From: Planctomycetota bacterium | Lineage (GTDB): Bacteria; Planctomycetota; J058 | Assembly: GCA_019636275.1 (NCBI GenBank) | Contig: JAHBXY010000002.1 | Location: 56,213-120,212 of the forward strand | Direction of reading: 5' to 3' | DNA length: 64,000 nucleotides | In this document: positions 28,288-47,874 of the stretch, piece after piece | How the letters are laid out: every line of letters starts with the position of its first letter | How positions within the stretch are numbered: the stretch's first letter is position 1 | Notes under the pieces: model-generated | The model's database searches: none | Seen by the model: the letters and a program-made list of their open reading frames with translations, nothing else | Told to the model about the DNA's origin: nothing | Program-made: the position numbers and the translations under genes

Positions 28288-30053
28288 TACTCGCCCTCGC
28301 AACAGCCGGCGCCGATGCTGCCCTTGAGGATCTCGGTCTTGAGGAGGAACGCGCCGACCGAGACGACGGCCTCACCGTCCGAGAGGCCCGCGAGCACCTC
28401 GACGTGCGTGTCCGTCGCGCCGCCGAGTTGCACCTTCCGCGGCAGGAAGGCCGTGTCGCCCTCCGGGAGGAAGACGACGTTGCAGCAGCCCTCCCACTGC
28501 ACGGCCTCCCTCGGCACGAGCAGCGCGTCGCCTCGGTCGGAGAGGGTCACCTGCGCCGTGCCGAACAGGTTCGCGCGCAGACGGCCGTCGCCGTTCTTCA
28601 GCTCCGCGCGCGCCTTGAGCGTGCGCGTCCGTCGGTCGACCTCGCTCGAGATCCACGTGATGTGTCCCGAGAAGCTCTCCCCCCGCAGCGCATGAACCGC
28701 GAACACGACCGGCTGGTCGGGCGCGATCCGCGCGATCGCCGCCTCCGGCACGTCGAGCAGCGCCCACATGGTGTCGGTGTCGACGATCGTCAGCAGCGGC
28801 TGCCTGGTCTCCACGACCTGGCCGCGGACCGCGTCTCGCCTCACGACCACACCGGCGAAGGGGGCCCGGATCGCGAGCGTCGAGTCGCGCGCGTTTGCGC
28901 CACCTTCGCGGACCTTCGCCGCCTGGTCAGCGGTGAGCCCGATGCTTCGGAGGCGCTGCTCAGCCCTGGCCAGGTCCGCCTTCACCTCCGTCCTGCGAGT
29001 ATCCGCGTCGATCACGGCGCGCTGCGTGCCCAGCCCTCGCTCGACGAGGCCCAGCTCGCGGGCATGGTTCCGCTCCCACAGCTCGAGCATCGAGACCGCG
29101 GTCGTCAGCTCGGACTTCGCGGCGCCGAGCTCCGGCGACTCGATCGACGCGAGGACCGCGCCCTCTTCGACCCAGTCGCCGAGCTTCGCGTTGACCTCCA
29201 CGACCGTGCCCGGAACGCGCGAGGACACCTCCGCGCGACGGTCCGCGGCGTAGACGATCTCCACGTTCACGGTCGTCAGGTCGCGGAACGGCGCGCGCAC
29301 CACCGGCGTCGTCACGATCCCGGTCTGACGCACGACGTCCGCCGAGGCGAGCTGGATCTTCTGGGCGTGCTTCCGACAGCCGACGACCGGCGACGAATGC
29401 CGCCGCGCCTCCGGCGACATGGGCGCGCTCGCCGGCGGCGGCGCGGCGAGCCGCGGGTTGCAGATCACGCACTGGCTCTCGGGCACCTCGTGCTCGGCGC
29501 ACCAGTCGAACGTCTTCTTGAAGGCGGGGATCAGCGCCGCGTTGCAGCGGGTGCACAGCGCCTCGGGCACGCCGTGCTCGGTGCACATGCCCCGTTGCTC
29601 GACGAGGGCCGGCGAGCAGATGAAGCAGATCGCCTCCGCAACGCCGTGCTCTCCACAGAACGCGCCTTCGCCTTGACCATGACCCGACCCGCCCGGCGCG
29701 GGCGGCTTGTGTCGGCCCGCGACCTCCGGGTTGCAGGTGACGCACTGCGACTCCGGCAGGTTGTGCTCCGCGCACCAGTCGTTGATCGCCTTGAACGCAG
29801 GGATGACGTCCTTGTGGCAGCGGGTGCAGATCGCCTCGGGGACGCCGTGTCCGCCGCAGAAGCCCTTCGTCTCGAGGAGCGCGGGCGTGCAGAACGGACA
29901 CTCCGCCGTCGACAGCGTGTGCGGACACGTGCCCGTCGCCGCCGCCGCGGGCCCCACGCCTCGACTGCGCATGACGTGGAAGCGATAGCCTGCGCCGACC
30001 AGGAGCAGGACGAGGATCCCGGCGAGCGCCAGGTTCTTCTTCGTGGTGTTCAT
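28287..30053 (-). CDS. RND membrane-fusion adaptor with an N-terminal array of four C-x-(E/G)H-x-(V/L)PE-x-x-C-x-x-C modules and C-terminal Cys pairs (EGCCN, GAGCCEGE)
   Basis: GGGAGGA RBS; TM anchor LALAGILVLLLVGAGY; CGGHGVPEAICTRCH, CAEHNLPESQCVTCNP, CGEHGVAEAICFICSP, CTEHGVPEALCTRCN, CAEHEVPESQCVICNP; HlyD-like core. Confidence 0.8.
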   Translation of the reverse strand: MNTTKKNLALAGILVLLLVGAGYRFHVMRSRGVGPAAAATGTCPHTLSTAECPFCTPALLETKGFCGGHGVPEAICTRCHKDVIPAFKAINDWCAEHNLPESQCVTCNPEVAGRHKPPAPGGSGHGQGEGAFCGEHGVAEAICFICSPALVEQRGMCTEHGVPEALCTRCNAALIPAFKKTFDWCAEHEVPESQCVICNPRLAAPPPASAPMSPEARRHSSPVVGCRKHAQKIQLASADVVRQTGIVTTPVVRAPFRDLTTVNVEIVYAADRRAEVSSRVPGTVVEVNAKLGDWVEEGAVLASIESPELGAAKSELTTAVSMLELWERNHARELGLVERGLGTQRAVIDADTRRTEVKADLARAEQRLRSIGLTADQAAKVREGGANARDSTLAIRAPFAGVVVRRDAVRGQVVETRQPLLTIVDTDTMWALLDVPEAAIARIAPDQPVVFAVHALRGESFSGHITWISSEVDRRTRTLKARAELKNGDGRLRANLFGTAQVTLSDRGDALLVPREAVQWEGCCNVVFLPEGDTAFLPRKVQLGGATDTHVEVLAGLSDGEAVVSVGAFLLKTEILKGSIGAGCCEGE

Positions 30054-30221
30054 GCGAGTCCTCCCGCTCCGCGAAGTCGCGGAGTCGGTGCCGGGTGCGT
30101 GGTGTTCTTGAAGCGTGAACGCGGACCACGCGCCGCCGTGAGACGACGGCGACGCGCTGGTCGCGTGGACGTGCAGGGGCACCGTGGGCGGAGTCTCTCC
30201 GCGAACGGCGACTACACGGAG

Positions 30222-31123: not shown

Positions 31124-31585
31124 TCGGCTGACGGCCGCAAGGGCGAGGCATGCCCGCCGCATGATGCGGGCGAGATGGATCGGATTCGCGTGGTGTGGAA
31201 CTCCTAAGTCCAGTGGCCGCACACCATCCTCCAGGAGTCGGATGGGCCGGGTAGTCTAGCCGCAGGGCGGCTTTCATCGCTTTAAATGTTTCTGCTCGCG
31301 ATCCTGCAGTTTTGACGACTTAACCCGTGCTGCGCCAGCTGTCCGGTTTGATGTGGCAGGGCTGTTCTGCCAAATTGACAACGTGGCGCTGGGTCAGGGT
31401 TCATCCTGCGTCGGTTGCGCGTGGCCCGCCCTGTGCAGGTGAGGTGCGGCCAGGCGTTCGACTCCGGTCTGCCCCAAACCCACACCGAACCATCGGCGGT
31501 GCGGTCCCGGGCGGCGACTTTGAAGGTTGTTCCTCCGGGAGGGCCAACGTCGCGGTCAGTCGTGCTCGGGCGGTGGAGGGAGCTC

Positions 31586-32788
31586 ATGAGTACACGCCCC
31601 ACGAAGGAGGGACCACGCCCGACCAGGCGAACGCGCCCTGGCCCCGCTGACGCGATGAGCAGGCACATTCCTCCCGCAGTTCGGTGCTCTCTCTGGGGAC
31701 GGGCTTCAGGTCGTTGCGAGTTCTCGGGCTGCAACCGTGCCGTGTCGTGGCACGCGGTGACGATGGAGGCGGGCAACTTCGCGGAAGTCGCGCACATCGT
31801 CGGGTTCAGCAAGGACGGACCCCGCGGTGAGGCCTTCCTCTCCGCGGACCTCGCCAAGGACGTTTCGAATCTCATGCTCCTCTGCCGTGGGTGTCACGAC
31901 CTCGTCGACAAGGACCCCACGAACTATACGGTGCATGTGCTCCAGGACATGAAGCTGGCCCATGAGCAGCGCGTGGAGCTGGTCACGGGCATCGCCGAGG
32001 AGAAGAAGAGCCACGTCCTGCTCTACTCCGCCAACGTCGGCGACCACGGTCCGGCGTCTACGTTCCAGCGGGCTGCGACCGCCATGTCCCCCGACTCGTA
32101 TCCGGCAGAGACGTATGCGATCTCACTTGGGTTCTCGAACAGCGCCATTCGCGACACCGACGACGACTTCTGGGCGATCGAGCAGAGGAACCTGACCGCG
32201 TCCCTGAAGGAGCGGCTGCGACCTCGGCTGGCTCGAGGCGGCGACATCTCCCACCTCGCCATCTTCGCGGTCGCGCCTCAGCCGCTGCTCATGCAGCTCG
32301 GATTCTCGCTGTCCGACATTCCTTCGGCCGAGACCTTTCAGCTGCATCGTGAGCCTCCAGGTTGGAAGTGGCGCTCTCACCCGCCGCGGTCACGGTTCGT
32401 TGTTGTGGAGCCGACCGAGATACGCGGGGCCCCAGCCCTCGTGCTCTCGTTGAGCGCGTCCATCTCGCCCGAGCGCGTCAAGGCTGTCCTGGGCGAGGAC
32501 GTGACGATCTGGACCCTCACGGTCGACGAGCCGCACAACGATTTCCTGCAATCGCGACAGCAGTTGAAAGAGTTCCGCGAGACGGTCCGGCCGCTCCTTG
32601 ACCTGATCAAGCTCAAGCACGGCGAGAGCTCGTTGCTGCACGTCTTCCCTGCCATGCCCGTCTCGACTGCGGTCGACTTCGGTCGTGTGCTCATGGCCAA
32701 GGCCGACCTGCCGATCAGGGTCTACGACCAGAACCGGTCCAAGGGCGGCTTCGTCCATGCTTTGGATCTCGTGTCGAGTCCTTTGTAG
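31586..32788 (+). CDS. cap5: CBASS effector, Cap5-like: N-terminal HNH endonuclease + C-terminal SAVED domain
   Basis: HNH motif CSLWGRASGRCEFSGCN...AEVAHIVGF...LMLLCRGCHDLVDKDP; SAVED-like halves HLAIFAVAPQPLLMQLGFSL / LLHVFPAMPVSTAVDFGRVL; GGAGGG RBS before ATG 31586 (alternative ATG 31655). Confidence 0.65.
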   Translation: MSTRPTKEGPRPTRRTRPGPADAMSRHIPPAVRCSLWGRASGRCEFSGCNRAVSWHAVTMEAGNFAEVAHIVGFSKDGPRGEAFLSADLAKDVSNLMLLCRGCHDLVDKDPTNYTVHVLQDMKLAHEQRVELVTGIAEEKKSHVLLYSANVGDHGPASTFQRAATAMSPDSYPAETYAISLGFSNSAIRDTDDDFWAIEQRNLTASLKERLRPRLARGGDISHLAIFAVAPQPLLMQLGFSLSDIPSAETFQLHREPPGWKWRSHPPRSRFVVVEPTEIRGAPALVLSLSASISPERVKAVLGEDVTIWTLTVDEPHNDFLQSRQQLKEFRETVRPLLDLIKLKHGESSLLHVFPAMPVSTAVDFGRVLMAKADLPIRVYDQNRSKGGFVHALDLVSSPL

Positions 32789-32803: not shown

Positions 32804-33536
32804 ATGGCAGAGCACCTTTCACCGGAGCGCATGGAGCAGTTCAGCCGCATCCTCGGGGATCTGGCCGACGACCTCGATGTTCCACCGTCGAAGTATGAGG
32901 AAGCGAAGGAGCACTACGACGCGGTAGGGGCGTGGCTGAACGACAGCCCCGACCTGGCCGCCCTGAACCCGACCATCTACCCACAGGGGTCCTTCGCTCT
33001 TGGCACCGCGATCAAGCCGGTTGGCGATGGCGACTATGACGTCGATGCCGTCTGCGTACTCCAGCTCAGCACCGCGACCACGACCCAGCACGCAGTGAAA
33101 ACTCTCGTCGGTGATCGCCTGAAGGAGAACAAGACGTATGCCCGCATGCTGCACCCCAAGGCGGGTGGGCGTCGTTGTTGGACCCTCAAGTACGCTGACT
33201 CGTCCAACTTTCATCTCGACATCTTGCCGGCCGTTCCCGATAGCCAAAGGGAGCTTGTCCGGCTCGGCGTCCCGCCCGAGATCGCGAAGTACGCAATCTG
33301 CATCACCGATCGCGAGCTCTGGGCCGTCGCGTTGACCTGGCCGCGGAGCAACCCGCAGGGCTACGTCGAGTGGTTCAAGTCGCGGATGCGCGTTGTCTTT
33401 GAAGAGCGTCGCCAGCTACGCGCGCTTGAGATTCGCGCCTCGGTCCAGGACATTCAGGACTATCAGGTCCGAACGCCCCTTCAACGTCTCATTCAGCTCC
33501 TGAAGCCCACGTTCCAGAGATCTCGGCCGTGCTCCG
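32804..33536 (+). pseudogene. nucleotidyltransferase (SMODS/CD-NTase-like; GS...DxD motif), N-terminal fragment interrupted by an IS1634-family insertion
   Basis: YPQGSFALGTAIKPVGDGDYDVDAVCVL; reading frame runs into the IS inverted repeat at ~33537. Confidence 0.55.
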
Positions 33537-35688
33537 CCCAATTATGTGTCTGCCAGAGTGGGGCTGAGTCGTCCTGCGCGTCCTCGGCGACGGGCTACTT
33601 CGCCTTCTTGGCCCTCCAGCCGCGGTGGCGTGGCTTCGGCTCCGCGAGTTGGGCATAGGCGACGCCAGGATCCGTCAGCATCGAGTGGTTGAGCAGCTCG
33701 AGCGCGTCACGCTGTGCGGTCGTCATGTTCGTCACGGTCACGCCGGGCACCCCGTCGACGCGGATCGTGTTGATCCCCTCGAAGAGACGGAAGACGACCT
33801 CCGTGGTCGGTCGCGTGGTCCAGCCCTTGTTCCCCGGGAAGTCGGCCCCGTGCTGCTCGAGGAGGCGGCGCACCTCCCGCTGGATGAGCGCGTAGACCAT
33901 CAGGGCCAGCACGTAAACGAGACCGAGCGCCGCGATCCGGGCGTCGGTCTTCAGGAACAGCGGCGCCACCTGTTGTGGATTCTTGAAGATCCGGATCGCG
34001 GTCTCGACCAGGTTCTGGTCCTGGTACGTGCGGAAGAGCTCCTGGTCCGAGCAAGCGTCGGGCCCCGTCGACGGGCGGGTCGTGATCAGGACGAAGCAAC
34101 TCTCGCGAAGGATAGCCTCGTCGACGTCGTGCTGGTCGTGTTCGATCGTGAGCACGGCGCGCCATACCGTTTCCATTTCGCGCTGCTCGTCTGCTGGCGG
34201 TCGTCCCGGGCCGGGGCGCTTCGTCGGTCGACGCTCGGCCACCACGCCAGCGACAAGCCGGTGAAGGTCTGGGCCGTGCCGCTCGATCGCGGCCGCAGCC
34301 GCGCGCCGGGCGTCCTCGTCGCACTTGAACTCGCGCTTGCCGAGCCGGACTGCGATCCGTTCGAGGCTCTTGCGCTCCTTGTCTCGTCGCGCCTCGATGA
34401 TCGCCGTCTTCTGCTCGCGCAAGGTCGTGGACTCAACGACGAGAGCGCGGATCGGGAACTCGTGCTCGACGCCGGTCGACTCGTCCTTCCAGCGATAGGA
34501 GAGGGCACACGAGCGGCCGTTCCACTCCTTCTCCGGCTCCGCCTCGAGGTCGTCGACGGCAGTCCCGTCCTCCAGGAACACCTTCGGGTAGACGACCTTC
34601 AGGCGAGTGAGCGGCTCGTCGCGCCCGAGAGCCGCGCGGAAGGCAGTGAACGCCTCCCCCCAGAGCCCGACACCGCGCGGCATCATCGTCAGGACATGGA
34701 AGCCGTGCTTCTGCGCGAGCAGCAGCGTCTCGCCCGAGAAGAGCTTGGCGTCGCCGACGATCGTCGTGCCCCGTGGGTCGGGGAGGACCTCGGCGAGGCG
34801 CCCCATGAGCCAACGGGTCTCCTGCGGGTCACTGCGGTTGCCGGACGACACGCGACCGAGAACGGCGACGCCGCCGTCGCAGGCCACGGCCAGTCCGTAC
34901 ACGATCTGCTTCAGGTCGCTCCGATAGTCCTTGCTGTGGCCTCTCGTGACGTGTGGAACCGCTCGCTCGTCCTCCGGGTCCAACGGCGGCACGCTGGCCG
35001 CATACTCGCCGTAGACCGAGACGGACGAGGTGTCGACGTGAATGGTCCCGAGCTCGAGGTCGTGCACTTTCACCGCACGAACGACGGCTGCAGCTTGGAT
35101 CTTCGTCGGGCCCGCGGCGAACGTGTCGTCGAGCGCCCGGGCCAACCGGTCGTCGTGGAACTGGGCGCAGCTCCCCTTCCAGCCGAACGCCAGCTCGAGG
35201 TCGTACGGCGCGAGGAGCTCGTCGATCCGATAGAGAGTGTGCCGGCCCAGCAGGATCGCGACGATCAGGGCCTCGACGCACTCACCCGCGCTCACACGAC
35301 TGCGCGGGTCCATGGGAACGATCTCGTCCACGAGGGCTGCGACGTCGAGCTGCCGCAGAGCACGTCCAATGATCGGCAAGAAGTCGAGGCGCTTCGCGCT
35401 GGCTTGCATGTGCCCTCTCCTCGCACGCCCGCGTGCGCGGGGCAAGGACAGCACGACAGCGGCCAGCACATCTCCAGCGTCCACGCCTCGCGCGGTCCAG
35501 TTGCGCATCCTTGCGCATCAGAAGCGTCTCCGGAGTGCAGCCGAACGGCGCCACGGAGTGGCCTCCAACACGGAGCTCCAACAGAATGCGCGCGGCGCGC
35601 CAGATGCACGCCAGTCGCCGCGGCTCGCCCCCCTGGGCGGCGGGGCGCCGTCGTCGGCTCTCAGTTGTTTGGCAATTACATAATTGGC
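33537..35688 (-). mobile_element. IS1634-family (IS4 superfamily) insertion sequence, ~2.15 kb, imperfect ~30-bp terminal inverted repeats (ccaattatgt...tgcca...ctgag)
   Basis: IRL 33537-33568 and IRR 35657-35688 are reverse-complementary; large DDE transposase inside. Confidence 0.65.
33595..35409 (-). CDS. IS1634-family DDE transposase (604 aa)
   Basis: Length and motifs typical of IS1634 (HVDTSSVSVYG, DGGVAVLGRV, PRGVGLWGEAFTAF); the antisense 782-aa ORF is rejected. Confidence 0.7.
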   Translation of the reverse strand: MQASAKRLDFLPIIGRALRQLDVAALVDEIVPMDPRSRVSAGECVEALIVAILLGRHTLYRIDELLAPYDLELAFGWKGSCAQFHDDRLARALDDTFAAGPTKIQAAAVVRAVKVHDLELGTIHVDTSSVSVYGEYAASVPPLDPEDERAVPHVTRGHSKDYRSDLKQIVYGLAVACDGGVAVLGRVSSGNRSDPQETRWLMGRLAEVLPDPRGTTIVGDAKLFSGETLLLAQKHGFHVLTMMPRGVGLWGEAFTAFRAALGRDEPLTRLKVVYPKVFLEDGTAVDDLEAEPEKEWNGRSCALSYRWKDESTGVEHEFPIRALVVESTTLREQKTAIIEARRDKERKSLERIAVRLGKREFKCDEDARRAAAAAIERHGPDLHRLVAGVVAERRPTKRPGPGRPPADEQREMETVWRAVLTIEHDQHDVDEAILRESCFVLITTRPSTGPDACSDQELFRTYQDQNLVETAIRIFKNPQQVAPLFLKTDARIAALGLVYVLALMVYALIQREVRRLLEQHGADFPGNKGWTTRPTTEVVFRLFEGINTIRVDGVPGVTVTNMTTAQRDALELLNHSMLTDPGVAYAQLAEPKPRHRGWRAKKAK

Positions 35689-36541
35689 GAAGCCTGGGCC
35701 GAGATGTCTGGAATGCGGGCTGAAGCGCCACCGCGATCTCCGTTACGACGACGACGACGACAAGCCAATCTCGATCATCATCACGACGCTGGCAGCCAAG
35801 GCCTATCGGAACGAGCGGGACCTGGGCTCCGCACTCCTGAACGTCGTTCCCGGAATGCGTCACGGGATCGAGCTGCGCGAAGGCAAGTGGTGGGTCCCCA
35901 ACCCCGTCGACCCGCGCGAAAACTTCGCCGACAAGTGGAACGAGACGCCTCGCAAATACGAGCTGTTCCGTGACTGGCTCCAGGCCGTCGAGACGGAGCA
36001 TCGAGCCCTCCTGAATTCGCTCGGGCCGAAATCGGGGCAAACCGTCGCAAGGCTGTTGTGTGAGTCGTACGGTGCCGACACCTCGAAGGGAGCCATCGAA
36101 AAGTTCGCCCGTCGGAATGACGCCGACACCTTCGTACTTACGGGGCCAAGGAACGCTCAGCGCTTCAGCATCGCGTATCGAGAGAATCCCCTCTGGCCTA
36201 TCTACCTGAAGCACCGCGTGACCATCTCGGGGCGCGCAACCAGGAACGGCTTCACGCCGTTCGCGTTCGAGAACGGTTCCACCGCGATTACAAAGCACTG
36301 TTCGCTTAGCTTCGCCGCGCACACCGACGTTCCCCGACCGTTCCAGGTGTTCTGGCAGGTTGTGAACACGGGCGCCGAGGCGGAGCGAGCCAAGTGCCTC
36401 CGCGGTGACCGCTTCTACCAGAGCGGTCCCACACACGATGAGATCACGCTCTATCGAGGCATGCACTGGGTGGAGTGCTTCGTCGTGAAGGACGGCATGT
36501 GCATCGCGCGGAGCGCCGAGTTCGTCGTCAACGTGCAATGA
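35689..36541 (+). pseudogene. C-terminal fragment of the IS-split nucleotidyltransferase (helical region PISIIITTLAAKAY + C-terminal beta-rich domain, possibly AGS-C-like)
   Basis: No plausible own start (TTG only); continues in-frame sense from the N-terminal fragment if the IS is removed. Confidence 0.45.
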
Positions 36542-36622: not shown

Positions 36623-37627
36623 ATGGCCACGACCGTCGACACAGCTTTTGAGGAGTTTCTTCGGACGAAGGTCAATCTCGACCCCGATGACACCGGAGGT
36701 GCCCGTAGGAGCCGCGATTGGCTCCTCGAACTGATCGCAAAGTTCCCGGACACATACGGCGACTTCCCTCTCCTCTACTCCGAACGAGACATTGCCTACG
36801 GCTCGTTCGCCCGTCGAACGAAAATCCGCGAACTCGACGACGTTGACCTGATTTCCTGCCTACACGCCACCGGGGGAACATACGTCGACCAAGGCTTCGG
36901 CGGGCCGATTCAGATCACCGTCCCAGCTTCCAGTCGACTCAGTGATTTTTGCCACGACAACAGCGCTAGCCTCAACTCCATCAAAGTGGTGAATCGTTTT
37001 GTGAAGGCATTGGCAGCCGTGCCGCAGTACAGCTCGGCAGCGATCAACAGGCGCGGCGAAGCGGCCGTCCTCGAACTCACGTCCTATCCATGGAGCTTCG
37101 ACGTCGTCCCAGGATTCTTCACTGCGCCAGACGCGCACGACCGAACCTACTACTTGATTCCAGACGGTAGCGGACACTGGAAGCGGACGGATCCGAGAAG
37201 GGACCGGGACCGGATCGCCAAGGTGAACCAAGACCATGACGGTCACGTTCTGAGCATCGTCCGTCTTATGAAGTACTGGAACCGACGCCCTACGATGCCT
37301 TCGGCACCTTCGTACATGTTCGAGTGCATGATCACGGACTACTACGAGGGGAGAGTTACGAAGGCAGTAAAGTGGGTCGACATCGAGACCGGCCAGGTAT
37401 TGCGGTACATTGCTGAGGCGGTCCTTGGTGTGGTGAACGACCCCAAGGGACTTCAGGGTGACCTGAACTCGCTGACTTTTGAGCAGCGCTGGGCAATCCG
37501 CGAGCGCGCCTTGCTCGATGCTGGACGGGCTGATGAGGCCCGCGCCCACGAGACGAGGAAGGATCATGAAAGGTCGATCAATAAGTGGCGCGAGGTCTTT
37601 GGACCGGAGTTCCCCCCATTTGAATGA
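36623..37627 (+). CDS. cdnX: cGAS/DncV-like nucleotidyltransferase (CD-NTase)
   Basis: YGSFARRTKIRELDDVDLISCL (GS...DhD active site), IVRLMKYWNRR helix typical of CD-NTases. Confidence 0.65.
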   Translation: MATTVDTAFEEFLRTKVNLDPDDTGGARRSRDWLLELIAKFPDTYGDFPLLYSERDIAYGSFARRTKIRELDDVDLISCLHATGGTYVDQGFGGPIQITVPASSRLSDFCHDNSASLNSIKVVNRFVKALAAVPQYSSAAINRRGEAAVLELTSYPWSFDVVPGFFTAPDAHDRTYYLIPDGSGHWKRTDPRRDRDRIAKVNQDHDGHVLSIVRLMKYWNRRPTMPSAPSYMFECMITDYYEGRVTKAVKWVDIETGQVLRYIAEAVLGVVNDPKGLQGDLNSLTFEQRWAIRERALLDAGRADEARAHETRKDHERSINKWREVFGPEFPPFE

Positions 37628-37734
37628 GGACAACGGGGACACGGACCCATACGGTTTGCGCCCGACCTGACGCATGCGGTGTGGCGACGCAAGTGTCGCC
37701 GTGTTGTTATTTGGCAACGAACGTGAGGAATTGA

Positions 37735-38604
37735 GTGAATTCACTTGAGCGCGTTCACGCGTGCTTTCGAGGTGCGGCCGAGATCGCGAAGACAACCACA
37801 AAGACCGGGTTCGTCCTCGAAGTGACAGCCGCCGGATTTGCCATCTGGGGGCTATTTTCAGACGTGCCGCGAATGTGGTTGCCGATCACCGGCTTAGGGC
37901 TCGCATTCGCTGCGTCGTGTGTAAGAGCGCTCGGGAGCCACTGGCGCGCCTTTTCACGCGCATGCGTTAGGACGTCAGCCCGCGCATTCGCCCTAGGAGA
38001 AGACATAGATCCCGCGACACTCTCCAGCATCGAGAGCGATGCCCCGCCGCTCGCGGCACCCTTGGCGAAGTGGCTACCGGCTCAGACCTTGCAAGGGTAC
38101 TACCAGCCACGGTTTCCCGCGGGAGAGGCGCGCTTGCGAGAAATCTATGCAGAATCAGCCTTCTTCACGTGGCGTCTGCTTCGCGTTTTCTTCTGGGCGC
38201 TCCTCCTGCTGACTCTCATCATTGCGGCGGGCGCTTTCGTTGCCCTTTACGGGCTGGTCGTCCAGTCTCCGACTGACGAGAACGTCAAGCGCGCCATCCT
38301 CGAAACATTGTGCTCCGTTACTGTCGCGATCTTTGGGATGAAGGCGGCGGAGCAGACAATTGAGGTCTTCGGCCAGGCTTCGTCCGTTCGTTCAGTAGCG
38401 GATGCCTTGATCCGAGCTCCCCTCCCTTGCGGCAAGGTTCTGGGCGAACTGGTCGACGATTACGACATCCAAATGTCTGCAGGGAAAGATCCTCCGACGC
38501 TGCTCTGGGTCCTGATGCGATCGAGCTTGAACGAACAGTGGAATCGTAGGCGTGAGGCCCTTGGACCTGTTCCCCCGACGGCGACATCGAGCGCGGAACA
38601 GTGA
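37735..38604 (+). CDS. multi-pass transmembrane protein, putative CBASS membrane effector
   Basis: Hydrophobic helices (FVLEVTAAGFAIWGLF; LPITGLGLAFAA; FFWALLLLTLIIAAGAFVALYGLVV; ILETLCSVTVAIFGM) immediately downstream of the CD-NTase. Confidence 0.45.
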   Translation: MNSLERVHACFRGAAEIAKTTTKTGFVLEVTAAGFAIWGLFSDVPRMWLPITGLGLAFAASCVRALGSHWRAFSRACVRTSARAFALGEDIDPATLSSIESDAPPLAAPLAKWLPAQTLQGYYQPRFPAGEARLREIYAESAFFTWRLLRVFFWALLLLTLIIAAGAFVALYGLVVQSPTDENVKRAILETLCSVTVAIFGMKAAEQTIEVFGQASSVRSVADALIRAPLPCGKVLGELVDDYDIQMSAGKDPPTLLWVLMRSSLNEQWNRRREALGPVPPTATSSAEQ

Positions 38605-38702: not shown

Positions 38703-39665
38703 GTGCCCAATGTGGGCGAAGGACGCTACGCTGATCTCGTGGAAGAGTCGGACACGCGGTCACGAGAGGACGCTCGCCGTGAGACAACCTGGGCTGGGTG
38801 GTGTGAGGACGTTATTGCCCGCGCGTCACTGGCACCCGGGCATGCCGAACGGGCCCGCTGTCTGCTCCCGCTACTTGTGCCTGACGAAGCTACGGCGGAC
38901 ACGCTCTCGCGGGCCTACGCATCACGCACGACGCAGTCAGCCCGTGCTGCCCTCCGAGCGTCTGTTCGAGCACTCGCCGTGAGTGTGCCTGGTGTGGCGG
39001 ATGGAAGCGTGCTGGTCGCGAGCGAGCTGTTGGAGCTTGAGTCGAGGGAACAGGACGAGACGCTCTCCGGAATCGGTCAGCACGGAGTCGACGGAGACGC
39101 AGTTATCTGGAGCGACGAAGGTCCGACCCTTCGCGAGGGCGACGGAGTGTTGGAGACACGCGCCCTCCTCTCGGCCCTTCTCGAACTGTCGGCGGTCCGC
39201 CCGGCAGTCCAAGAGCTCGGCTTCACCGTGCTCGACGGCGCCACCACGCCGACCTTCCAGCAGGATCTCCGTCGTGCGTGGGCGATCGTCAACGGCGACC
39301 CGGTGCCGTCGACCGCGAGCAACGGCGAGCCGCCGACGCCGGACGCGTTGACGTCAGTGGCCAATGAGCTTCGAGCGCTTCGCGCGGAGGTGGCCCGACG
39401 GGCCACCCCGTACGAGGGGACTGTCGACTGGATCGAGGACGTGGTTGCCGCGCTGCCGCCGCTGCTGGAGCAAGGCGAAGCCGCCAAGGCCCTCGGGGTG
39501 GATCCGCGCACCATCAGGCGCATGATCAACCGGGGCGAGTTGAAGTCCGTTGACGTAGGAGAAGGCGGCCGGGGACGATCTTGCGGCGTACGGATTCCTC
39601 GCGTCGCGATCGCCGACTTCTTGCGCGAGAAGGAAGCGCGCGGCCAGCGACCTTCTTCGCCGTGA
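38703..39665 (+). CDS. hypothetical protein with C-terminal excisionase/AlpA-like HTH
   Basis: EAAKALGVDPRTIRRMINRGELKSVDVG...RIPRVAIADFL; adjacent to integrase. Confidence 0.45.
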   Translation: MPNVGEGRYADLVEESDTRSREDARRETTWAGWCEDVIARASLAPGHAERARCLLPLLVPDEATADTLSRAYASRTTQSARAALRASVRALAVSVPGVADGSVLVASELLELESREQDETLSGIGQHGVDGDAVIWSDEGPTLREGDGVLETRALLSALLELSAVRPAVQELGFTVLDGATTPTFQQDLRRAWAIVNGDPVPSTASNGEPPTPDALTSVANELRALRAEVARRATPYEGTVDWIEDVVAALPPLLEQGEAAKALGVDPRTIRRMINRGELKSVDVGEGGRGRSCGVRIPRVAIADFLREKEARGQRPSSP

Positions 39666-39668
39666 CCG

Positions 39669-41075
39669 CTACGTGGTCGCGGAGTCGATGGAGACGACGG
39701 CGACGCTGCTCGAAGACCCCCGGCGCTTGAGGCGAGCCACGATCGCAGCCACGTCGGCGGTGATGCCCATCGCAGCCTCGAGCGTCTTCGCGGACTTGCT
39801 GATGCCCTTGAGCAGCCCGACATAGTGACGCTCGGCGATCACGATCGAATGGCCGAGGCGCTTGGCGGAGTGGAAAGCGGCGGCGGCCGCGTAGATGCCC
39901 GGCGCGTTGGTCAGGAACGTGCCGCACGTGGCCCGCAGCGCGGGCGTCTCGTCCTCGGTCTGCGACCAGCAGAAGTCCGGCGCACCGAGCTCGTCGACGA
40001 GGCGCTTGCGCGCCGACTCGACCTTGGAACGAGACCAGGGCTCCTTGCCACCGAAGACGTACACGTCGTCCTTTCCGCGCTCGAGGGCCTCCAGGATCTT
40101 CTTGAGGCCCGGGCAGATGCTGAGGTCGATCGCGCGCTCGTGACCCGTCTTGACGTCGCCGGCGCGCAGGACGATCTCCCCTGCCTTCCTGCCCCGGCCG
40201 TCGCGGGCGTCGAAGTCGACGGAGGCCCAGCGGAGCATGAGCGCCTCGTCGCGGCGGCAGCCGGTCAGGAGCATGAAGACGATGAACGGTGCGATCGGGT
40301 CGTACTTCGGGGTGCCGCCCTTCGCACCCGCTGCCTTCTCGGTGCGAGTCATGACGAACGTGCCGGTGTCGTGGCTGAGCGCGGCCTGGAGCAGCGTCTT
40401 GATCTGCGCGACGCGGAGGAAAGCAGGCCGAGGCTTCGCGGTCTTGAGGGGCTTGATGCGGTCCTTGATGTCGTCGGACGTGATGTGAGGCAGGCGGCCG
40501 ACTCGGCGGAGCTGGTTAAGGATCGCCTTGACGGAGCGCAGGCGGTTGTTGACCCCACCGGGGGAGCAGGTGCGATCGCTCGGCGCGCGCTCGGTGCGGC
40601 GTCCGCCCTTGACGGGCCTCTTGGCGGGCCTCGCCGCCAGCCACTCGACGAACGCGGCCAGGTGGTGCGGCCGGAGATCGTCGGCGAGACGGATCCGGTT
40701 GATGTTCGCCCACTCGAGGAAGATCGTCGTGGCGGTGCGGTAGGTCTTTGGGGTGGACCCCTTGAGCCGCGCGCCCTTGGTGCTGAAGTAGCCCTCGATC
40801 GCGTCCGCGAGAGACGCGCCGGTGTGTGTCGCCGCCCCCGTGGCGAGCTTGCGCTCGCGTTCGCCCAGCGCGAGGGACTTCGTGATCATCCACTTCCGGC
40901 GCCCCTCCGCGGTCGTGATCCCCTCTGGCTCGAAGGAGAACTCCCGCGGCTTCCCGGTGTCCGGGTCGAACCAGCGCGCGCGGAGGTCGAGGCCGGCTGC
41001 GCTCCGTCGCTTGACCTCGAACACGCCCGGATGGGCCGACCTGGCCCTCCGGCGCTGCACCTTCTTCACGATCAC
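39669..41075 (-). CDS. int: tyrosine-type site-specific recombinase / phage integrase
   Basis: C-terminal catalytic region LLTGCRRDEALMLRW ... HSAKRLGHS ... ERHYVG; N-terminal SAM-like domain. Confidence 0.8.
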   Translation of the reverse strand: MIVKKVQRRRARSAHPGVFEVKRRSAAGLDLRARWFDPDTGKPREFSFEPEGITTAEGRRKWMITKSLALGERERKLATGAATHTGASLADAIEGYFSTKGARLKGSTPKTYRTATTIFLEWANINRIRLADDLRPHHLAAFVEWLAARPAKRPVKGGRRTERAPSDRTCSPGGVNNRLRSVKAILNQLRRVGRLPHITSDDIKDRIKPLKTAKPRPAFLRVAQIKTLLQAALSHDTGTFVMTRTEKAAGAKGGTPKYDPIAPFIVFMLLTGCRRDEALMLRWASVDFDARDGRGRKAGEIVLRAGDVKTGHERAIDLSICPGLKKILEALERGKDDVYVFGGKEPWSRSKVESARKRLVDELGAPDFCWSQTEDETPALRATCGTFLTNAPGIYAAAAAFHSAKRLGHSIVIAERHYVGLLKGISKSAKTLEAAMGITADVAAIVARLKRRGSSSSVAVVSIDSATT

Positions 41076-41146: not shown

Positions 41147-41199
41147 TTCCGTAAATGCCTGTGCGGCAACGTATCTACTGACGGCCCAGGAGGCCTGGC

Positions 41200-41246
41200 C
41201 GTGACTGAAAATCACGGAGTCGGCGGTTCAAGTCCGCCCTCGTCCA
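41200..41246 (+). other. 3' fragment of a tRNA-Phe(GAA) gene (anticodon arm, variable loop, T-arm, acceptor 3' strand + discriminator A); 5' half absent. Putative att site of the integrase
   Basis: cgtga-CTGAAAA-tcacg (anticodon GAA), gagtc, ggcgg-TTCAAGT-ccgcc, ctcgtcc-a; upstream sequence cannot form acceptor or D stems. Confidence 0.55.
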
Positions 41247-41260
41247 TGCGGTAAGAGAAG

Positions 41261-41287
41261 AAGGCCCCGGCGGTCGCGCCGGGGCCT
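41261..41287 (+). terminator. perfect 12-bp GC-rich hairpin (aaggccccggcg-gtc-cgccggggcctt) followed by cttctgcgtt, likely the original tRNA terminator
   Basis: Seen in sequence 15 nt after the tRNA fragment. Confidence 0.5.
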
Positions 41288-41708
41288 TCTGCGTTCCGGC
41301 GGAGCCGCGGTCGTTCAGTCAATACGCCGGTCAACATTCGCGCGGGCCATGGCCGCGCCCGATGACAACGGGCCGCCTCTCGTGGTCAGGAGCCGCACTC
41401 CTGATCCAAGGGGCTCGCGTGCGCGTGCCCCCTCCTGAGCTCACAGGGTGGAGCTTCTTCGGCGCGGTCGCGGACTGGGCTGCAGCACGAGGCACCGAAC
41501 CGGTGCCAGGAGAGCTGCATGTCCCTTCTGCTTCTCGACCTCGACGCCCGCGTCCGCGTCGCCATGATCGCGGAGCTCGATCGCGACCTCGCCGGCGACG
41601 GCCCCTTCATCTCGCCGCGGCTCACGCCGCCGGGGGTCGCGCTCGTGGAGCTCGTGAGCGTGGCGGCCCGCCAGGCCGCGACGGTCGGCCGGAACGAGGT
41701 CTGCCCTC

Positions 41709-42437
41709 GTGGTGCGCCCGGCGCGAACGGGAAGCGGAAGAAGTTCAAGAACTGCTGCCTGGTCCCGCTCGATCGCGTGGGGCCGCCGGCAGGGAGCGGC
41801 GGTGGACGACGAACTGATCGACGACCTGGTCGAGCGCGACGCGGCCGTGTCGGTGTGGCGCTTCCACGAGGAGCCGCGCGCGCTGTGGTCGGTGATCCGC
41901 GACTTCCTGGGCGGCGGCGGTCACGCGCCGAACGCGGCGCACGTGGCGCTGGCGCGCCTGCCGCTCGCGGGCGTCGTCACGCAGAACGTCGACGGCCTGC
42001 ACCAGGCGACCGGGACGCGCGCGCCGATCGTCGAGCTGCACGGGTCGCTCCTGGCGACCCGCTGCGACGCGTGCGGCGCGCGCGGGCCGGCGTGCGCGGC
42101 GCTGCTCGACGGGCCGCTGCCGCCCCCGTGCGCCTGCGGCGCCGCCCTGCGGCCCGACGTCGTGCTCTTCGGCGAGTGGGTCGCGCCCGACCGGCTCGCG
42201 CGGGCGCGGGCGCTCGTCGAGCGCTGCGACCTCTTGCTCGTCGTCGGCACGGCGGCCGACGTGTCGCCCGCGGCCGACCTCGTCCGGCTCGCCGCGGCGC
42301 GCGGGGCGCCGGTCGCCGAGGTCAAGCGGCGGCCGTCGTGCCTGCACGAGGCGGCAGGTACGCGGCACCTCCCGGGGGCGGCGGAGGACGTGCTGCCGGC
42401 GGTCGTCGAGCGCCTGCGCGCGCGGGGGACGGCGTGA
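41709..42437 (+). CDS. Sir2-family (CobB-like) protein lacking the N-terminal Rossmann GAGIS motif (truncated/frameshifted)
   Basis: PNAAHVALARL...VVTQNVDGLHQ...ELHGS...CDACG...CACG zinc ribbon; in-frame stop at 41655 prevents N-terminal extension; upstream frame (41519-) has coding GC3 and a SEC-C-like motif KRKKFKNCC. Confidence 0.55.
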   Translation: MVRPARTGSGRSSRTAAWSRSIAWGRRQGAAVDDELIDDLVERDAAVSVWRFHEEPRALWSVIRDFLGGGGHAPNAAHVALARLPLAGVVTQNVDGLHQATGTRAPIVELHGSLLATRCDACGARGPACAALLDGPLPPPCACGAALRPDVVLFGEWVAPDRLARARALVERCDLLLVVGTAADVSPAADLVRLAAARGAPVAEVKRRPSCLHEAAGTRHLPGAAEDVLPAVVERLRARGTA

Positions 42438-43069
42438 GCCTCGACGACGAGCTGCGCCGGCTCGAGCGCGCCGCGGCGCAGGGCGACCCGGAGGCGGCCG
42501 CGCGCCTGGAGGAGCTCCGCCGGCGCGCGGGGCGGCTGATCCCGGTGCCGTTAGTGATCCCGCCCCTCGGCGCGACCGTCGAGGAGGCGGAGGTCGGCGA
42601 GGTCGAGGTCCAGGTCGGGGCGCACGTGCACAAGGGCCAGCCGCTGGTCGTGCTCGAGACCGACAAGGTGTCCGTCGAGCTGGTCGCGCCGGCGGACGGC
42701 GTCGTGACGGCCGTGTCGGCGGGGGCCGGCGAGCGGCTGAGGATCGGCGCCGAGGTGGTGCAGCTCGCCTGCGCCGACCTGCCCGACGACGACCCGTGGG
42801 CGCTCCTGGCCGTGGCGCGCGCCGCGCAGGCGAGCGGGCACGCCGAGCTCGCCCTGCGCGCGCTCGACCGCGCCGTCCCGGCCGCCTCGTGCGGGGCGCT
42901 CTACCGCGAGCGCGACGCCGGGGTCGAGGGCGTCGCGCGCGCGGCGCTACGAGGCGCTCGGGCGGCGGGAGGCGCGGGCCGCTGGCGCGCCGCGCTGGAG
43001 GCGGCGCGCGGCGATGAGGCCCTGCGCGCCGAGGCGGCGGCGCGGCTGGCGGCGCTGGACGCCGGCTGA
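42434..43069 (+). CDS. lipoyl/biotinyl-attachment-like domain protein
   Basis: GTG start overlapping sirtuin stop (GTGA); VVLETDKVSVELVAPADGVVTAV resembles lipoyl-domain core; Ala/Arg-rich C-terminus. Confidence 0.45.
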   Translation: MSLDDELRRLERAAAQGDPEAAARLEELRRRAGRLIPVPLVIPPLGATVEEAEVGEVEVQVGAHVHKGQPLVVLETDKVSVELVAPADGVVTAVSAGAGERLRIGAEVVQLACADLPDDDPWALLAVARAAQASGHAELALRALDRAVPAASCGALYRERDAGVEGVARAALRGARAAGGAGRWRAALEAARGDEALRAEAAARLAALDAG

Positions 43070-43118
43070 CCCGCGCGAGGTGCCGCGGCTGCACGGCCCG
43101 ACGGGCGCGCCATGTGAA
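43011..43118. repeat. direct repeat copy 1 (~105 bp, ~85% identical to 44751-44860); includes the 3' end of gene 42434..43069
   Basis: Aligned by eye: gcgcgcggcgaYgaggccctgcgcgccgaggcRgcggcgcggctggcggcgctggac...tgacc...ggctgcacggcccgac. Confidence 0.7.
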
Positions 43119-43148
43119 GTCGGCTCGTGATGTAGCGGCCCGCGTCAC

Positions 43149-44648
43149 TCACCGCTCCTCGACGGCCTCCCGTACGACGCGCACGCTCACGTCGATCTCG
43201 CGCAGCAGCGAGCGCTCCGCAGGGGTGAAGCCCTCGAACTGGTAGGGGCGGTACTGGAACGGGTGTGCGGTGCGCCACAGCACGTCGCCCGTCGGGACCT
43301 CCTCCGCCGGTCCCAGGAGCGGATAGAGGTAGGTCGCGTTCAGCAGCCACGTGCCAGGGGGCGCCCCGGGCGGGCGCGGCGGCGCGGGCGGCCCGAGCAC
43401 GCTCGCGCGCTCCGCCATGGGCCCGAAGCGCGCGGCGACCTGCCGCTGCGCCTCGTCGGGGAACACGAGCCGCAGCGGGGCGGCGAACTGCGCGCCGGCG
43501 TGCGCGAGGAGCATGGCCCCGAGCGCCGCGCGGGCCGCCGGGGACCCCCGGCGCAGCCGGGGCGCCAGGGCCCACGCGGCCGCCAGGCAGAGGAACGGGA
43601 TCAGCGGGCGGACGAGGCGGCCGTAGACGGTGAACGTCTGGAGCAGCGTGGAGCTGACGGCGAGCGCCGCGTAGATCCCGAGCACCGCTCCCACCCACAG
43701 TCCGCCGCGCGCCCGCTCGCCCGGGTCGCCACAGCGCGCGAGCCGGTGCACCGCGAGCGCCAGCGCGGCGAGCAATCCGGCGAGGAGCGCCTTCTCCGCC
43801 TCCCACAGGTACTCCCACGGCAGGCGCCAGCCCTCGGTGAACGCCCCCTGCGTCACGGTGCGGGCGAAGCTCCGCGCCTCGCGGATGTAGGCGCCTTCGA
43901 GCAGCAACCGGTCCAGCGCCACGACGAGGCCGACCGGGCTCGCCGCGCCGATCCCGAGCGCGACCGCGCGCCGCGCGCGCGCCCACCACGACCCGGCTCG
44001 CCCGGCCGCGACCGCGACGACGCCGCCGGCGAGCATCCAGGAACCGTTGTAGGTGAGGAAGGAGGCCCCGGCGAGGAGCCCGCAGCCGAGGCTGGTCGCG
44101 AGCCGCGGCGCCGGGCTCAGGGCAAGCCAGAGCGCCGCGAGCGCCAGCGCCAGCGCCGCGTCGTAGGGCTGCAGGTGCCGCGCGGGGTAGAACAGGCTGG
44201 TCGAGCAGGCGGCCAGGAGCGCCGCCAGGAGCGCCTCGTCGGGCGGCGCGCCCATGCGCCTGGCGAGCGCGTGCACGAGGCCGATCAGGGCCACGGACAC
44301 GAGCGACAGGAAGAGGGCCGGCACCCAGAGGGTCCGCGTCCATGATGCGCGCGACTCGAGGGGCGCCCCGCGCCACACGAGGTAGAGCCCCTGCGCCAGC
44401 GCCGGGGCGGCGCCGACGTGGACCCAGCCGGTGTGCTCCGGGTCGAGGCCCATCTCGGCCGCGGCGGCGATGTCACCCTCGCGGAGGCGGAGGAGCATGA
44501 GGATCGAGCGGCCGAAGCGGCCCTCGTCGGGGAAGAAGGACTGGCCGCCGCCCAGCACCAGCGCGATGCGCACGGCGGCCGAGGCGAGGAGCAGGAGCAG
44601 CAGCGCTCGGCGCTCCCTGGACCTCCACCCCGTGCCCGCGGTCGTCAC
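43149..44648 (-). CDS. polytopic membrane glycosyltransferase-like protein (GT-C fold; ArnT/PMT/GT39-like)
   Basis: GTG start; ~11 hydrophobic helices; Arg-rich loops; bracketed by the 105-bp direct repeats. Confidence 0.5.
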   Translation of the reverse strand: MTTAGTGWRSRERRALLLLLLASAAVRIALVLGGGQSFFPDEGRFGRSILMLLRLREGDIAAAAEMGLDPEHTGWVHVGAAPALAQGLYLVWRGAPLESRASWTRTLWVPALFLSLVSVALIGLVHALARRMGAPPDEALLAALLAACSTSLFYPARHLQPYDAALALALAALWLALSPAPRLATSLGCGLLAGASFLTYNGSWMLAGGVVAVAAGRAGSWWARARRAVALGIGAASPVGLVVALDRLLLEGAYIREARSFARTVTQGAFTEGWRLPWEYLWEAEKALLAGLLAALALAVHRLARCGDPGERARGGLWVGAVLGIYAALAVSSTLLQTFTVYGRLVRPLIPFLCLAAAWALAPRLRRGSPAARAALGAMLLAHAGAQFAAPLRLVFPDEAQRQVAARFGPMAERASVLGPPAPPRPPGAPPGTWLLNATYLYPLLGPAEEVPTGDVLWRTAHPFQYRPYQFEGFTPAERSLLREIDVSVRVVREAVEER

Positions 44649-44750
44649 GGCGGCGAGCCTACACCGGGCGCCATCGTGCCGCAGGCCTCGCGGAGTCAGC
44701 CGCCTGCGCCGCTGCTCGGCGGTCCAGGCGCAGCGACCAGGCGGCGCGTC

Positions 44751-44860
44751 GAGGCGCGCGGCGACGAGGCCCTGCGCGCCGAGGCAGCGGCGCGGCTGGC
44801 GGCGCTGGACACGGGTTGACCCCACGCAAGCGCGGCGGCTGCACGGCCCGACCGCGTGCC
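44751..44860. repeat. direct repeat copy 2 (duplicated 3' end ...RGDEALRAEAAARLAALD(T/A)G*)
   Basis: See copy 1. Confidence 0.7.
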
Positions 44861-44894
44861 ATCGATCCCACCCTCCGTGCATGGAGGGTGACGC

Positions 44895-45929
44895 GTGCTC
44901 TGCGACAAGACGACCCTGCGTGCGCGCTACGACGCGATCCTGGCCGCGGGCTGCCTCGACCCGGCGCAGCAGGCGCGGGTCCGGGCGGGCGAGGCGCCGC
45001 CCGGGGTCGTGCTCCAGCAGAGCGGCGGCTCGAGCGGCGAGGCGCCCCTGCGGCTCCCCAAGGCCCGGGCCGAGACGGCCTGGCTGATCGACCGGCTGGC
45101 CGGGCACCACCGCCGCGTCTTCGGCGAGGCGCCCCGGCGCGTGGCGTTCGTCGGCGGCGTGACGCACCTCCAGGCGGGGCGCGTGGAGGGCCTGTTCCCC
45201 GGCGGCGTGACGCGCAGCTTCCGCCTGCGCGAGTGGGACGCGCTGGTCGCGTTCCAGCCGGACCTCCTCTCCTGCTACCCGAGCGCGGCGCGCGACCTCG
45301 TCGTCCGCGACGCCGCGGCGCTCGGCTGCGTGCGCACGCTGAAGCTCGGCGGCGAGACCGTCCTGCCGGCCGACCGGGCGCGCCTCCTCGAGCGCCTCCC
45401 GGGGGTCCTGCTCCTCGAGCAGTTCGGCTCGACCGAGATGCCTTGCCTGGCGCTCCGCGCCACGACCCGCGACGAGGACACGGGCTACGTCCTGAGCCGC
45501 GACCGCTACGCGTTCAGCTTCGAGCCGCCCGGCGAGGGCTGGCGCGAGGTCGTCGTGCGCGACGACCTCCCGGCGCGGGCGTTCCCGATCCCCGGCTGGT
45601 ACCGCACCGGCGACGAGGCGCTCCTCGACCCGGGCGGCCGCGTCCTGGCCCTGCGGCGCCGGGGCGACCCCGCCGCGCCGTTCCTCGACGCGCTCGACGC
45701 GCTGGTCCGCGCGGGCTGCACGCAGGTGCAGGTGGACCTGCGCGACCGCACGCTGCGCCTCGAGGCCGGGCCGGAGGTGCGGCTCGAGCGCGAGGTGGTC
45801 CTCGGCGGCGTCACGCTCGCCGTCGAGCGCGGGCCGGTCTACCGGCTGAAGGACTCGAACAAGGCGCCGCTGGTCCTGGCGGCGGTGGGCCGCGCGCCGA
45901 CCTGGCGCCGGCCGGAGGAGGAGGCATGA
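44895..45929 (+). CDS. adenylate-forming enzyme, phenylacetate-CoA ligase (PaaK)/F390-synthetase-like
   Basis: QQSGGSSGEAP (SxGTTGxP-like P-loop), YRTGD motif; GGAGGG RBS before GTG. Confidence 0.6.
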   Translation: MLCDKTTLRARYDAILAAGCLDPAQQARVRAGEAPPGVVLQQSGGSSGEAPLRLPKARAETAWLIDRLAGHHRRVFGEAPRRVAFVGGVTHLQAGRVEGLFPGGVTRSFRLREWDALVAFQPDLLSCYPSAARDLVVRDAAALGCVRTLKLGGETVLPADRARLLERLPGVLLLEQFGSTEMPCLALRATTRDEDTGYVLSRDRYAFSFEPPGEGWREVVVRDDLPARAFPIPGWYRTGDEALLDPGGRVLALRRRGDPAAPFLDALDALVRAGCTQVQVDLRDRTLRLEAGPEVRLEREVVLGGVTLAVERGPVYRLKDSNKAPLVLAAVGRAPTWRRPEEEA

Positions 45930-47802: not shown

Positions 47803-47874
47803 TGCCGACCGCGGAAGCTCGAGCGTGGCCGCGCCCCCCGCCTCCTCATGGCAGGGGCGGCGTCCGGAGGGACG

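Follow-up and report, generated by a model that had tools for sequence, protein, structure and literature searches.

A probable two-gene type I CBASS operon joining a CdnD/CdnC-like cyclase to a putative remote S-4TM effector on a Planctomycetes genomic island

The window analysed here, a stretch of 64,000 nucleotides from Planctomycetota bacterium (assembly GCA_019636275.1, contig JAHBXY010000002.1, positions 56,213 to 120,212 of the forward strand), carries two adjacent genes that very probably constitute a two-gene type I cyclic oligonucleotide-based antiphage signalling system (CBASS) of the CdnD-like/4TM design, i.e., a cGAS/DncV-like nucleotidyltransferase (CD-NTase) followed by an effector with four transmembrane (TM) segments. 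This identification is drawn from the gene anatomy, family assignments, catalytic residues, adjacency, predicted folds and N-in/C-in topology of the products, and it is firmer than the activity of this particular copy, which is less certain. The two same-strand open reading frames (ORFs) lie exactly where an earlier reading made from the letters alone (the sequence-only reading) had placed them: the oligonucleotide cyclase at 36623-37627 of the forward strand (334 aa, starting with ATG) and, after a spacer of 107 nt (37628-37734), the effector at 37735-38604 of the same strand (289 aa, starting with GTG). The operon begins 81 nt past the C-terminal fragment of a split CD-NTase gene, that is, right after a disrupted CBASS, as that reading had it. 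Its description as minimal (type I) is also right, since no Cap2/Cap3, HORMA/TRIP13 or Cap9-12-type accessory gene is adjacent according to the PADLOC and Pfam matches of the neighbouring ORFs. The operon thus sits beside a second CBASS inactivated by an insertion sequence (IS), on an integrase-bearing island of lower GC content in a Planctomycetes metagenome-assembled genome. In general terms the locus is ordinary, one more type I CBASS of a common cyclase-plus-4TM design in a defence island of an uncultured Planctomycetes, and its interest rests on the poorly annotated branch to which the effector belongs and on specificity residues in the cyclase that no known product rule explains.

By every test run, the first gene encodes a CBASS CD-NTase. 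The PADLOC CBASS cyclase model PDLC00802 is matched essentially from end to end (E 1.9e-131, residues 1-332 on positions 1-330 of 332), and the threshold of the Pfam SMODS family (PF18144) is passed with 28.6 bits against a gathering (GA) score of 26.5 (E 1.9e-6), over residues 121-202 only. The family is large, with 1,077 relatives at E<=1e-10 in a collection of 5.8 billion proteins, spread over many phyla, typically of 331-335 aa and with identities of 52-57%. In an alignment of 20 of these homologues G60, S61, D72, D73, D75 and D160 are invariant, and by their positions they comprise the GS, DxD and third-Asp catalytic residues (G60-S61, D73-V-D75 and D160). The AlphaFold2 (AF2) model (mean pLDDT, the per-residue confidence score, 84.3) finds as its top Foldseek matches PaCdnD (6p8u/6p82), the other matches being EcCdnC, CdnD, CdnB, DncV, cGAS and MiD51 only. 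The motifs that had been quoted as marks of a cGAS/DncV-like enzyme, YGSFARRTKIRELDDVDL (residues 59-76) and LMKYWNRR (residues 215-222), are both present in this ORF, and the class proposed from them agrees with the PADLOC match, with the SMODS score above GA and with folds restricted to CD-NTases, cGAS and MiD51.

Regarding the clade, which was judged by ranking against solved CD-NTases and not by a formal clade phylogeny, the cyclase appears to be CdnD/CdnC-like. Its family profile matches PaCdnD at 1.8e-22, BcCdnD at 1.6e-15 and EcCdnC at 4.9e-10, followed by Enterobacter and Salmonella CdnD at around 1e-8 and, further down, by a clade E enzyme (0.12) and DncV, from clade A (0.9). The motifs DDVDL and FDV of the cyclase are similar, though not identical, to the active-site motifs 'PDVDI' and 'LDL' of clade D (PMC13424991). 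The closest solved relatives, by both sequence profile and fold, are therefore the CdnD of P. aeruginosa (6P82/6P8U), BcCdnD of B. cereus (9SA4) and the CdnC of E. coli MS115-1 (6P80), with which the GS / DxD / D catalytic layout and the threonine at Lid 1 are shared. Unlike the window operon, which has no accessory genes and a membrane protein as effector, the systems from which these enzymes come are of type III (HORMA/TRIP13) or type II (Cap2/Cap3) and use nucleases (NucC, Cap4) as effectors; their cyclases produce cyclic triadenylate (cA3). The enzymes also differ in the residues associated with specificity (S/T-GS-Y/L and His, whereas the window has YGSF and a Lid-2 Asp), and the identity is about 22%. 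When the clade C/D specificity positions (PMC13424991) are mapped onto the cyclase through its alignment to PaCdnD, Lid 1 falls on the conserved threonine T189, Lid 2 on D194 (an Asp that is invariant across the family) and the XGSX motif on Y59-G60-S61-F62, FGSF being the family consensus. In clades C and D, the cA3 makers have been described with S/T at the first position of XGSX (S/T-GS-Y/L) and His at Lid 2, and the makers of cAAG, a cyclic trinucleotide as well, with Gln/Asn before GS and Gln at Lid 2 (PMC13424991).

The second gene encodes a predicted membrane protein. Four hydrophobic peaks are found at about residues 33, 57, 163 and 197; the homologues carry all four segments at the same positions, and in most of them three of the segments are more pronounced. 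The four or more hydrophobic helices attributed to this protein by the sequence-only reading thus hold as position-conserved segments, but not as uniformly strong ones, as strong hydrophobicity is limited here to the third (Kyte-Doolittle 2.63). Lys and Arg are concentrated in the N-terminal segment, in the stretch separating TM2 from TM3 and in the one that follows TM4, and the two short loops are poor in these residues, a distribution that fits an N-in/C-in four-TM topology. The AF2 model (pLDDT 86.4; pTM, the global confidence score, 0.80) places helices at residues 3-41, 48-87, 131-177 and 182-226, with short cytoplasmic helices besides, and since the four helices span 39-47 residues, they must, in the model, reach well past the bilayer. 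The invariant residues cluster just before TM3 (Y122, Y123, P125, G130, R133, E136, Y138, A139, F143, W146, L148, L149 and R150) and after TM4 (L239, Y243, D244, L265 and W269), resulting in the motifs YYxP..G..R..E.YA...F..WxLLR (residues 122-150) and L239..YD244. These conserved cytoplasmic aromatic and arginine motifs provide concrete targets for mutagenesis. No beta-barrel, SAVED or CARF sensor domain was detectable in the effector by Pfam scans, and the structure searches returned no solved relative beyond generic helical hairpins. An internal duplication of tandem two-TM units was sought as well by aligning the N- and C-terminal halves with hhalign, giving E 0.007 with a probability of just 5%.

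The extent of this protein depends on the start codon. The public annotation (KF878_01250) begins at a TTG at 38089 and yields a product of 171 aa that lacks TM1 and TM2. The 289-aa reading from GTG 37735 is nonetheless the one that the sequence supports, because the homologues align from residue 1, with H8, F11, R12, G13 and E16 nearly invariant, and because a GAGGA ribosome-binding site (37725-37729) is located 5 nt ahead of the GTG; the public entry would consequently be truncated.

To what family does this effector belong? It matches the PADLOC '4TM' CBASS effector model PDLC00724 (E 3.4e-7), as do 15 of the 15 members of its family (best 1.4e-12), with essentially no other PADLOC model matched. 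A word-indexed search found 14 relatives of 277-296 aa with 32-39% identity, plus the 171-aa version from NCBI, and an exhaustive HMMER search over 1.84 billion proteins retrieved 763 cluster representatives at E<=1e-3, 98 of them at E<=1e-30. The relationship to the Pfam S_4TM family (PF18159) is far less evident: the hmmscan of the 15 family members, i.e., the effector and its 14 close homologues, against this model gave one match (E 0.26) and none that was significant, and the comparison by hhalign of a profile of these 15 sequences with single canonical S_4TM proteins gave a probability of 0.1%. A link emerges only when the profile is enlarged to 131 sequences and when bridging proteins are considered. 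The enlarged profile aligns with three canonical S_4TM proteins over 263 colinear columns (hhalign probability 89.7%, E 1.8e-6). One bridging protein, P0254, matches the effector family profile (2.1e-16) and PDLC00724 (2.2e-28), and also Pfam S_4TM over its full length (33.8 bits against a GA of 26.9); another, P0271, passes the S_4TM threshold with 28.7 bits and matches the effector family profile too. Both groups share a size of about 290-330 aa, the four-TM layout and a place beside the same cyclase family, and they are colinear from end to end, with a common aromatic-Tyr-x-Pro motif before TM3 and a P-x-x-P-T/D motif near the C-terminus. Canonical S_4TM proteins, in turn, match nine other PADLOC 4TM models (PDLC00715-00723, 00725) and not PDLC00724, and at the level of hidden Markov models (HMMs) there are therefore two separate 4TM groups. 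Taken together, these comparisons point to the effector as a member of a remote branch of the S-4TM superfamily, outside the family as defined by Pfam, that is, a rarely seen and unannotated branch within a known effector family. To our knowledge, no member of either 4TM branch has a solved structure, a demonstrated ligand or a demonstrated mechanism. A family that is invisible to Pfam (763 representatives) is in this way presented as a remote S-4TM branch paired with CD-NTases, and its recognition would improve the annotation of defence systems.

The pairing of the two genes recurs elsewhere. In seven of the eight CBASS-type contexts examined, the gene directly upstream of the effector homologue encodes a CD-NTase or is what a deletion has left of one; in the window and in the loci L001, L002, L006, L007 and L014 it is a CD-NTase gene on the same strand. 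The cyclases paired in this manner span at least three PADLOC cyclase models, and further defence genes, Abi, WYL and TIR among them, are found in the paired loci. Together with the 15 PADLOC 4TM matches, this adjacency in independent metagenomic contexts lends support to the assignment of the 289-aa protein as a type I CBASS membrane effector that had been made from the letters. One of the loci (L010, 3666-4867) is an example of the decay of this type of operon: upstream of its effector homologue (P0006, with 38% identity) lies an ORF of 112 aa, an internally deleted cyclase remnant that consists of positions 4-73 of PDLC00802 fused to the C-terminal end, and hence derives from the same cyclase family.

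The cyclase family, for its part, also occurs with other members of the superfamily. In Desulfomonile tiedjei and Clostridium botulinum, cyclases with 50-53% identity have a canonical S-4TM gene as their neighbour. At about 50% identity, the family further matches 953 plasmid records, mostly conjugative plasmids of enterobacteria, and Escherichia accounts for 615 of these records. In the plasmid inspected (E. coli NZ_AP028312.1, L015, 3001-4932) the gene directly after the cyclase is annotated as 'S-4TM family putative pore-forming effector'. The plasmid members of the cyclase family are often annotated merely as 'hypothetical protein'. The plasmid S-4TM proteins match PDLC00715-00723 and 00725, whereas the window effector belongs to the remote PDLC00724-like branch and itself has no homologue in the plasmid collection at E 1e-3. 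A scan of GTDB genomes with one peptide pattern of the effector returned two loci, a count that is no measure of abundance. The operon thus combines a common cyclase family with an uncommon branch of the effector superfamily that usually accompanies it, an instance of the effector swapping that has been described before in type I CBASS.

In several defence systems, such as CBASS with Cap15/S-2TM-beta, Cap14 TM-SAVED or SLATT effectors and type III CRISPR with Cam1 or Csx23, a cyclic nucleotide made upon infection activates a small protein that depolarises or permeabilises the membrane. The same nucleotide-gated membrane logic is proposed for the window operon, with the difference that, according to the predicted model, its putative sensor would be all-helical and formed where the TM helices extend into the cytoplasm. 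The more distant relatives of the effector extend the comparison to CRISPR, as two PDLC00724-type proteins, P0265 and P0254, are encoded in type III-D CRISPR-Cas loci. In the metagenome contigs L008 (1-6526) and L009, P0265 is encoded between a Csm4/Cas5-IIID gene with three Csm3/Cas7 genes on one side and cas1-cas2 on the other (in L008 the order is Csm4/Cas5-IIID, the three Csm3/Cas7 genes, P0265, cas1 and cas2). In L012 (610-2307) and L013, P0254 adjoins cas1-cas2, the order in L012 being P0254, cas1 and cas2. Cas10 was not seen within the stretches covered. No paper combining '4TM' with 'type III CRISPR' was found in a literature search of incomplete coverage. These relatives suggest a membrane effector that responds to cyclic oligoadenylates (cOA) and has neither a CARF nor a SAVED domain. 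If the CRISPR relatives were indeed activated by cOA, the S-4TM superfamily would be a nucleotide receptor independent of CARF and SAVED, with an all-helical sensor common to CBASS and CRISPR, and a ligand of the oligoadenylate type would be favoured. Two readings that go further, namely that the remote S-4TM branch is a cyclic-oligonucleotide-gated pore former interchangeable between CBASS and type III-D CRISPR-Cas, and that the cyclase family of the window makes a signal other than cA3 or cAAG, are put forward tentatively and are, for the time being, rather doubtful.

The nearest system with functional data is EcCdnD12-4TM, a type I CBASS from E. coli that restricts phages of five families at least 10,000-fold (Richmond-Buccola et al., bioRxiv 10.1101/2023.05.21.541620). 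Its toxicity needs two catalytic aspartates and it is triggered in vivo by the scaffold domain of a phage prohead protease, while no stimulation of EcCdnD12 was seen in vitro with virions, phage proteins or nucleic acids (bioRxiv 10.1101/2023.05.21.541620). Compared through this published description, the window operon is alike in having a CD-NTase apparently of the clade D type, then a four-TM effector, and no accessory genes. On this basis, phage infection would activate the CdnD/CdnC-like CD-NTase, which would polymerise and cyclise NTPs at its GS / DxD / D active site; the resulting nucleotide would bind to the cytoplasmic helical part of the effector, where invariant Tyr, Trp, Phe and Arg residues abound, and drive it to permeabilise the inner membrane, possibly by forming a pore, so that the cell would be killed or arrested before the release of the phage (abortive infection). 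The activating cue, the nucleotide product, the ligand site and the formation of a pore, as well as the expression and activity of the locus, are inferred here by analogy with these systems.

Several observations weigh against this identification of the locus or call for caution. On the side of the enzyme, the NCBIfam equivalog CBASS_cyclase_b (NF041117) is matched with 102.3 bits (E 3.4e-29), under its cut-off of 200 bits, and the cyclase would accordingly count as related to this family without equivalog membership. Furthermore, the aromatic Y/F at XGSX and the Asp at Lid 2 fit neither the cA3 nor the cAAG pattern, and therefore the product is not predictable by the known rules; from relatedness, a cyclic trinucleotide (of the cA3/cAAG type, as in the nearest characterised relatives) is most likely as a default guess. 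On the side of the effector, the match to PDLC00724 amounts to 27.7 bits and covers residues 117-273 only, Pfam S_4TM gives no match even at E 10, and three TM segments of this copy (TM1, TM2 and TM4) reach only marginal hydropathy values (Kyte-Doolittle 1.45-1.55). One of the homologous contexts (L011, 3397-7724) has no recognisable cyclase beside its effector homologue, P0004, whose gene is followed instead by those of a 365-aa protein with no family match and a 766-aa protein with a GAF domain, which may represent a different partner or sensor. The 107-nt spacer is also unusual, given that the genes overlap or lie 14 nt apart in homologous loci, and it contains a terminator-like hairpin at 37681-37699 (GTGGCGAC-GCA-AGTGTCGC) followed by a T-rich tail. 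Lastly, the neighbouring CBASS in the window is already dead.

Some of these features would be expected if the operon were a decaying or silent remnant, with genes that are still open and no longer work together, for instance because the inserted spacer and hairpin uncouple the effector from the cyclase or because its insertion in the membrane is weak. The long spacer with its hairpin and the marginal TM segments speak for it, and decay does occur in such loci, as in the deleted cyclase beside an intact effector homologue in L010 and in the IS-disrupted neighbour. Nevertheless, both ORFs are full length with respect to their homologues (100% and 94-100% coverage), all the catalytic and family-invariant residues are kept, and the effector start has its ribosome-binding site. 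As to the hairpin, four terminator-like sites were found in the region where 1.7 +/- 1.4 were expected, which is not significant, and the hairpin may act as an attenuator or be a chance occurrence. A remnant is accordingly considered unlikely, and the 'intact' of the sequence-only reading stands at the level of sequence, through the full-length alignments and the presence of every catalytic and invariant residue. Less probable still is an inverted or decoy logic of the Panoptes type, in which a constitutively made nucleotide would hold the effector off and phage sponges or nucleases depleting the signal would trigger killing. It would account for the absence of a sensor domain or accessory regulator, which leaves activation unexplained, and for the unresponsiveness of EcCdnD12 in vitro, but it predicts the opposite of what is seen in EcCdnD12-4TM, where mutation of the catalytic aspartates abolishes toxicity, and the enzyme here is a CD-NTase and not a minimal CRISPR polymerase. 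The last alternative, that the enzyme is a polymerase-beta-superfamily nucleotidyltransferase foreign to CBASS (an antibiotic nucleotidyltransferase or one of the MNT type from a toxin-antitoxin system) and the membrane protein an unrelated cargo, is effectively refuted. It could appeal to the partial SMODS match, only 2 bits over the threshold, and to the equivalog cut-off. In the Pfam scan of the cyclase, however, there is no NTP_transf_2, KNTase or Polbeta match, the PADLOC cyclase model is covered throughout, and the profile and fold searches yield only CD-NTases, cGAS and MiD51. Enzymes of the antibiotic or MNT type are absent from the family, profile and fold matches alike, and the better alignment to polymerase-beta-like antibiotic enzymes that the sequence-only reading had named as its own refutation was thus not found. 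Adjacency to 4TM effectors is, moreover, conserved across phyla and plasmids. An antibiotic-nucleotidyltransferase identity is hence ruled out by the family and fold evidence, and the two-gene type I CBASS is retained as the explanation of the locus.

The disrupted system that precedes this operon is also a CBASS, with different components. Its effector, a Cap5-type HNH-SAVED protein, is encoded at 31415-32788 of the forward strand (PADLOC PDLC00739, 1.4e-143; Pfam SAVED, 1.1e-45). The ORF as listed, of 457 aa from a TTG, probably starts some 80 residues too early, since the family models align only from residue 81. Downstream of it lies the first CD-NTase gene of the window (32804-36541, forward strand), with a C-terminal AGS_C domain (Pfam, 1.7e-31), split in two fragments (32804-33658 and 35684-36541) that match positions 5-236 and 235-509 of the PADLOC model PDLC00770. 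A transposase gene of the IS1634 family (33595-35508, reverse strand; NCBIfam transpos_IS1634, 3.7e-63) is located inside it; this IS1634-family insertion breaks the cyclase near model position 235 and thereby inactivates the system (Cap5 HNH-SAVED plus CD-NTase with AGS_C). In the sequence-only reading the two cyclases had been called unrelated in sequence and hence not a duplication. Pairwise BLASTP detects nothing significant between them (E 0.42 and 7.9) and they match different PADLOC cyclase models, and therefore they do not come from a recent duplication; they still belong to one superfamily.

Both systems lie within a stretch of distinct composition. The GC content of the window is about 70-80% and falls to about 60-65% between approximately 31 and 41 kb, with its minimum (59.5%) over the two-gene operon. 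The right end of this lower-GC island is marked by an HTH_17/excisionase-like gene (38703-39665, forward strand; Pfam HTH_17, 1.6e-10; TIGR01764 excise, 4.2e-6) and by a tyrosine integrase gene (39669-41075, reverse strand; Pfam Phage_integrase, 7.2e-6). Beside the integrase gene there is a degenerate tRNA-like element on the forward strand (41183-41246), with a Phe-like anticodon loop (CTGAAAA), an intact T-arm and an odd 5' half; its Rfam tRNA score of 27.3 bits (E 0.031) is below the gathering score of 29, and ARAGORN reports no tRNA at this site. It is probably a remnant of the attachment site of the island. A second copy of its 3' end was sought within the window, where it proved to be single-copy. 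Direct repeats were considered as candidate attachment-site (att) repeats of the island, and those found in the window look like chance. A GC-rich hairpin lies just past the tRNA-like element, at 41264-41290.

As for the surroundings of the island, the GC content climbs to 77-81% directly to its right (42000-48000), in comparison with about 70% on its left, and very long overlapping ORFs, typical of extreme GC contents, are present on both strands of that region. On the left, the reverse-strand ORF at 28287-30182 encodes a protein of 631 aa whose N-terminal part carries Cys-rich repeated units, with motifs such as CPFC, CxRC and CVTCNP.

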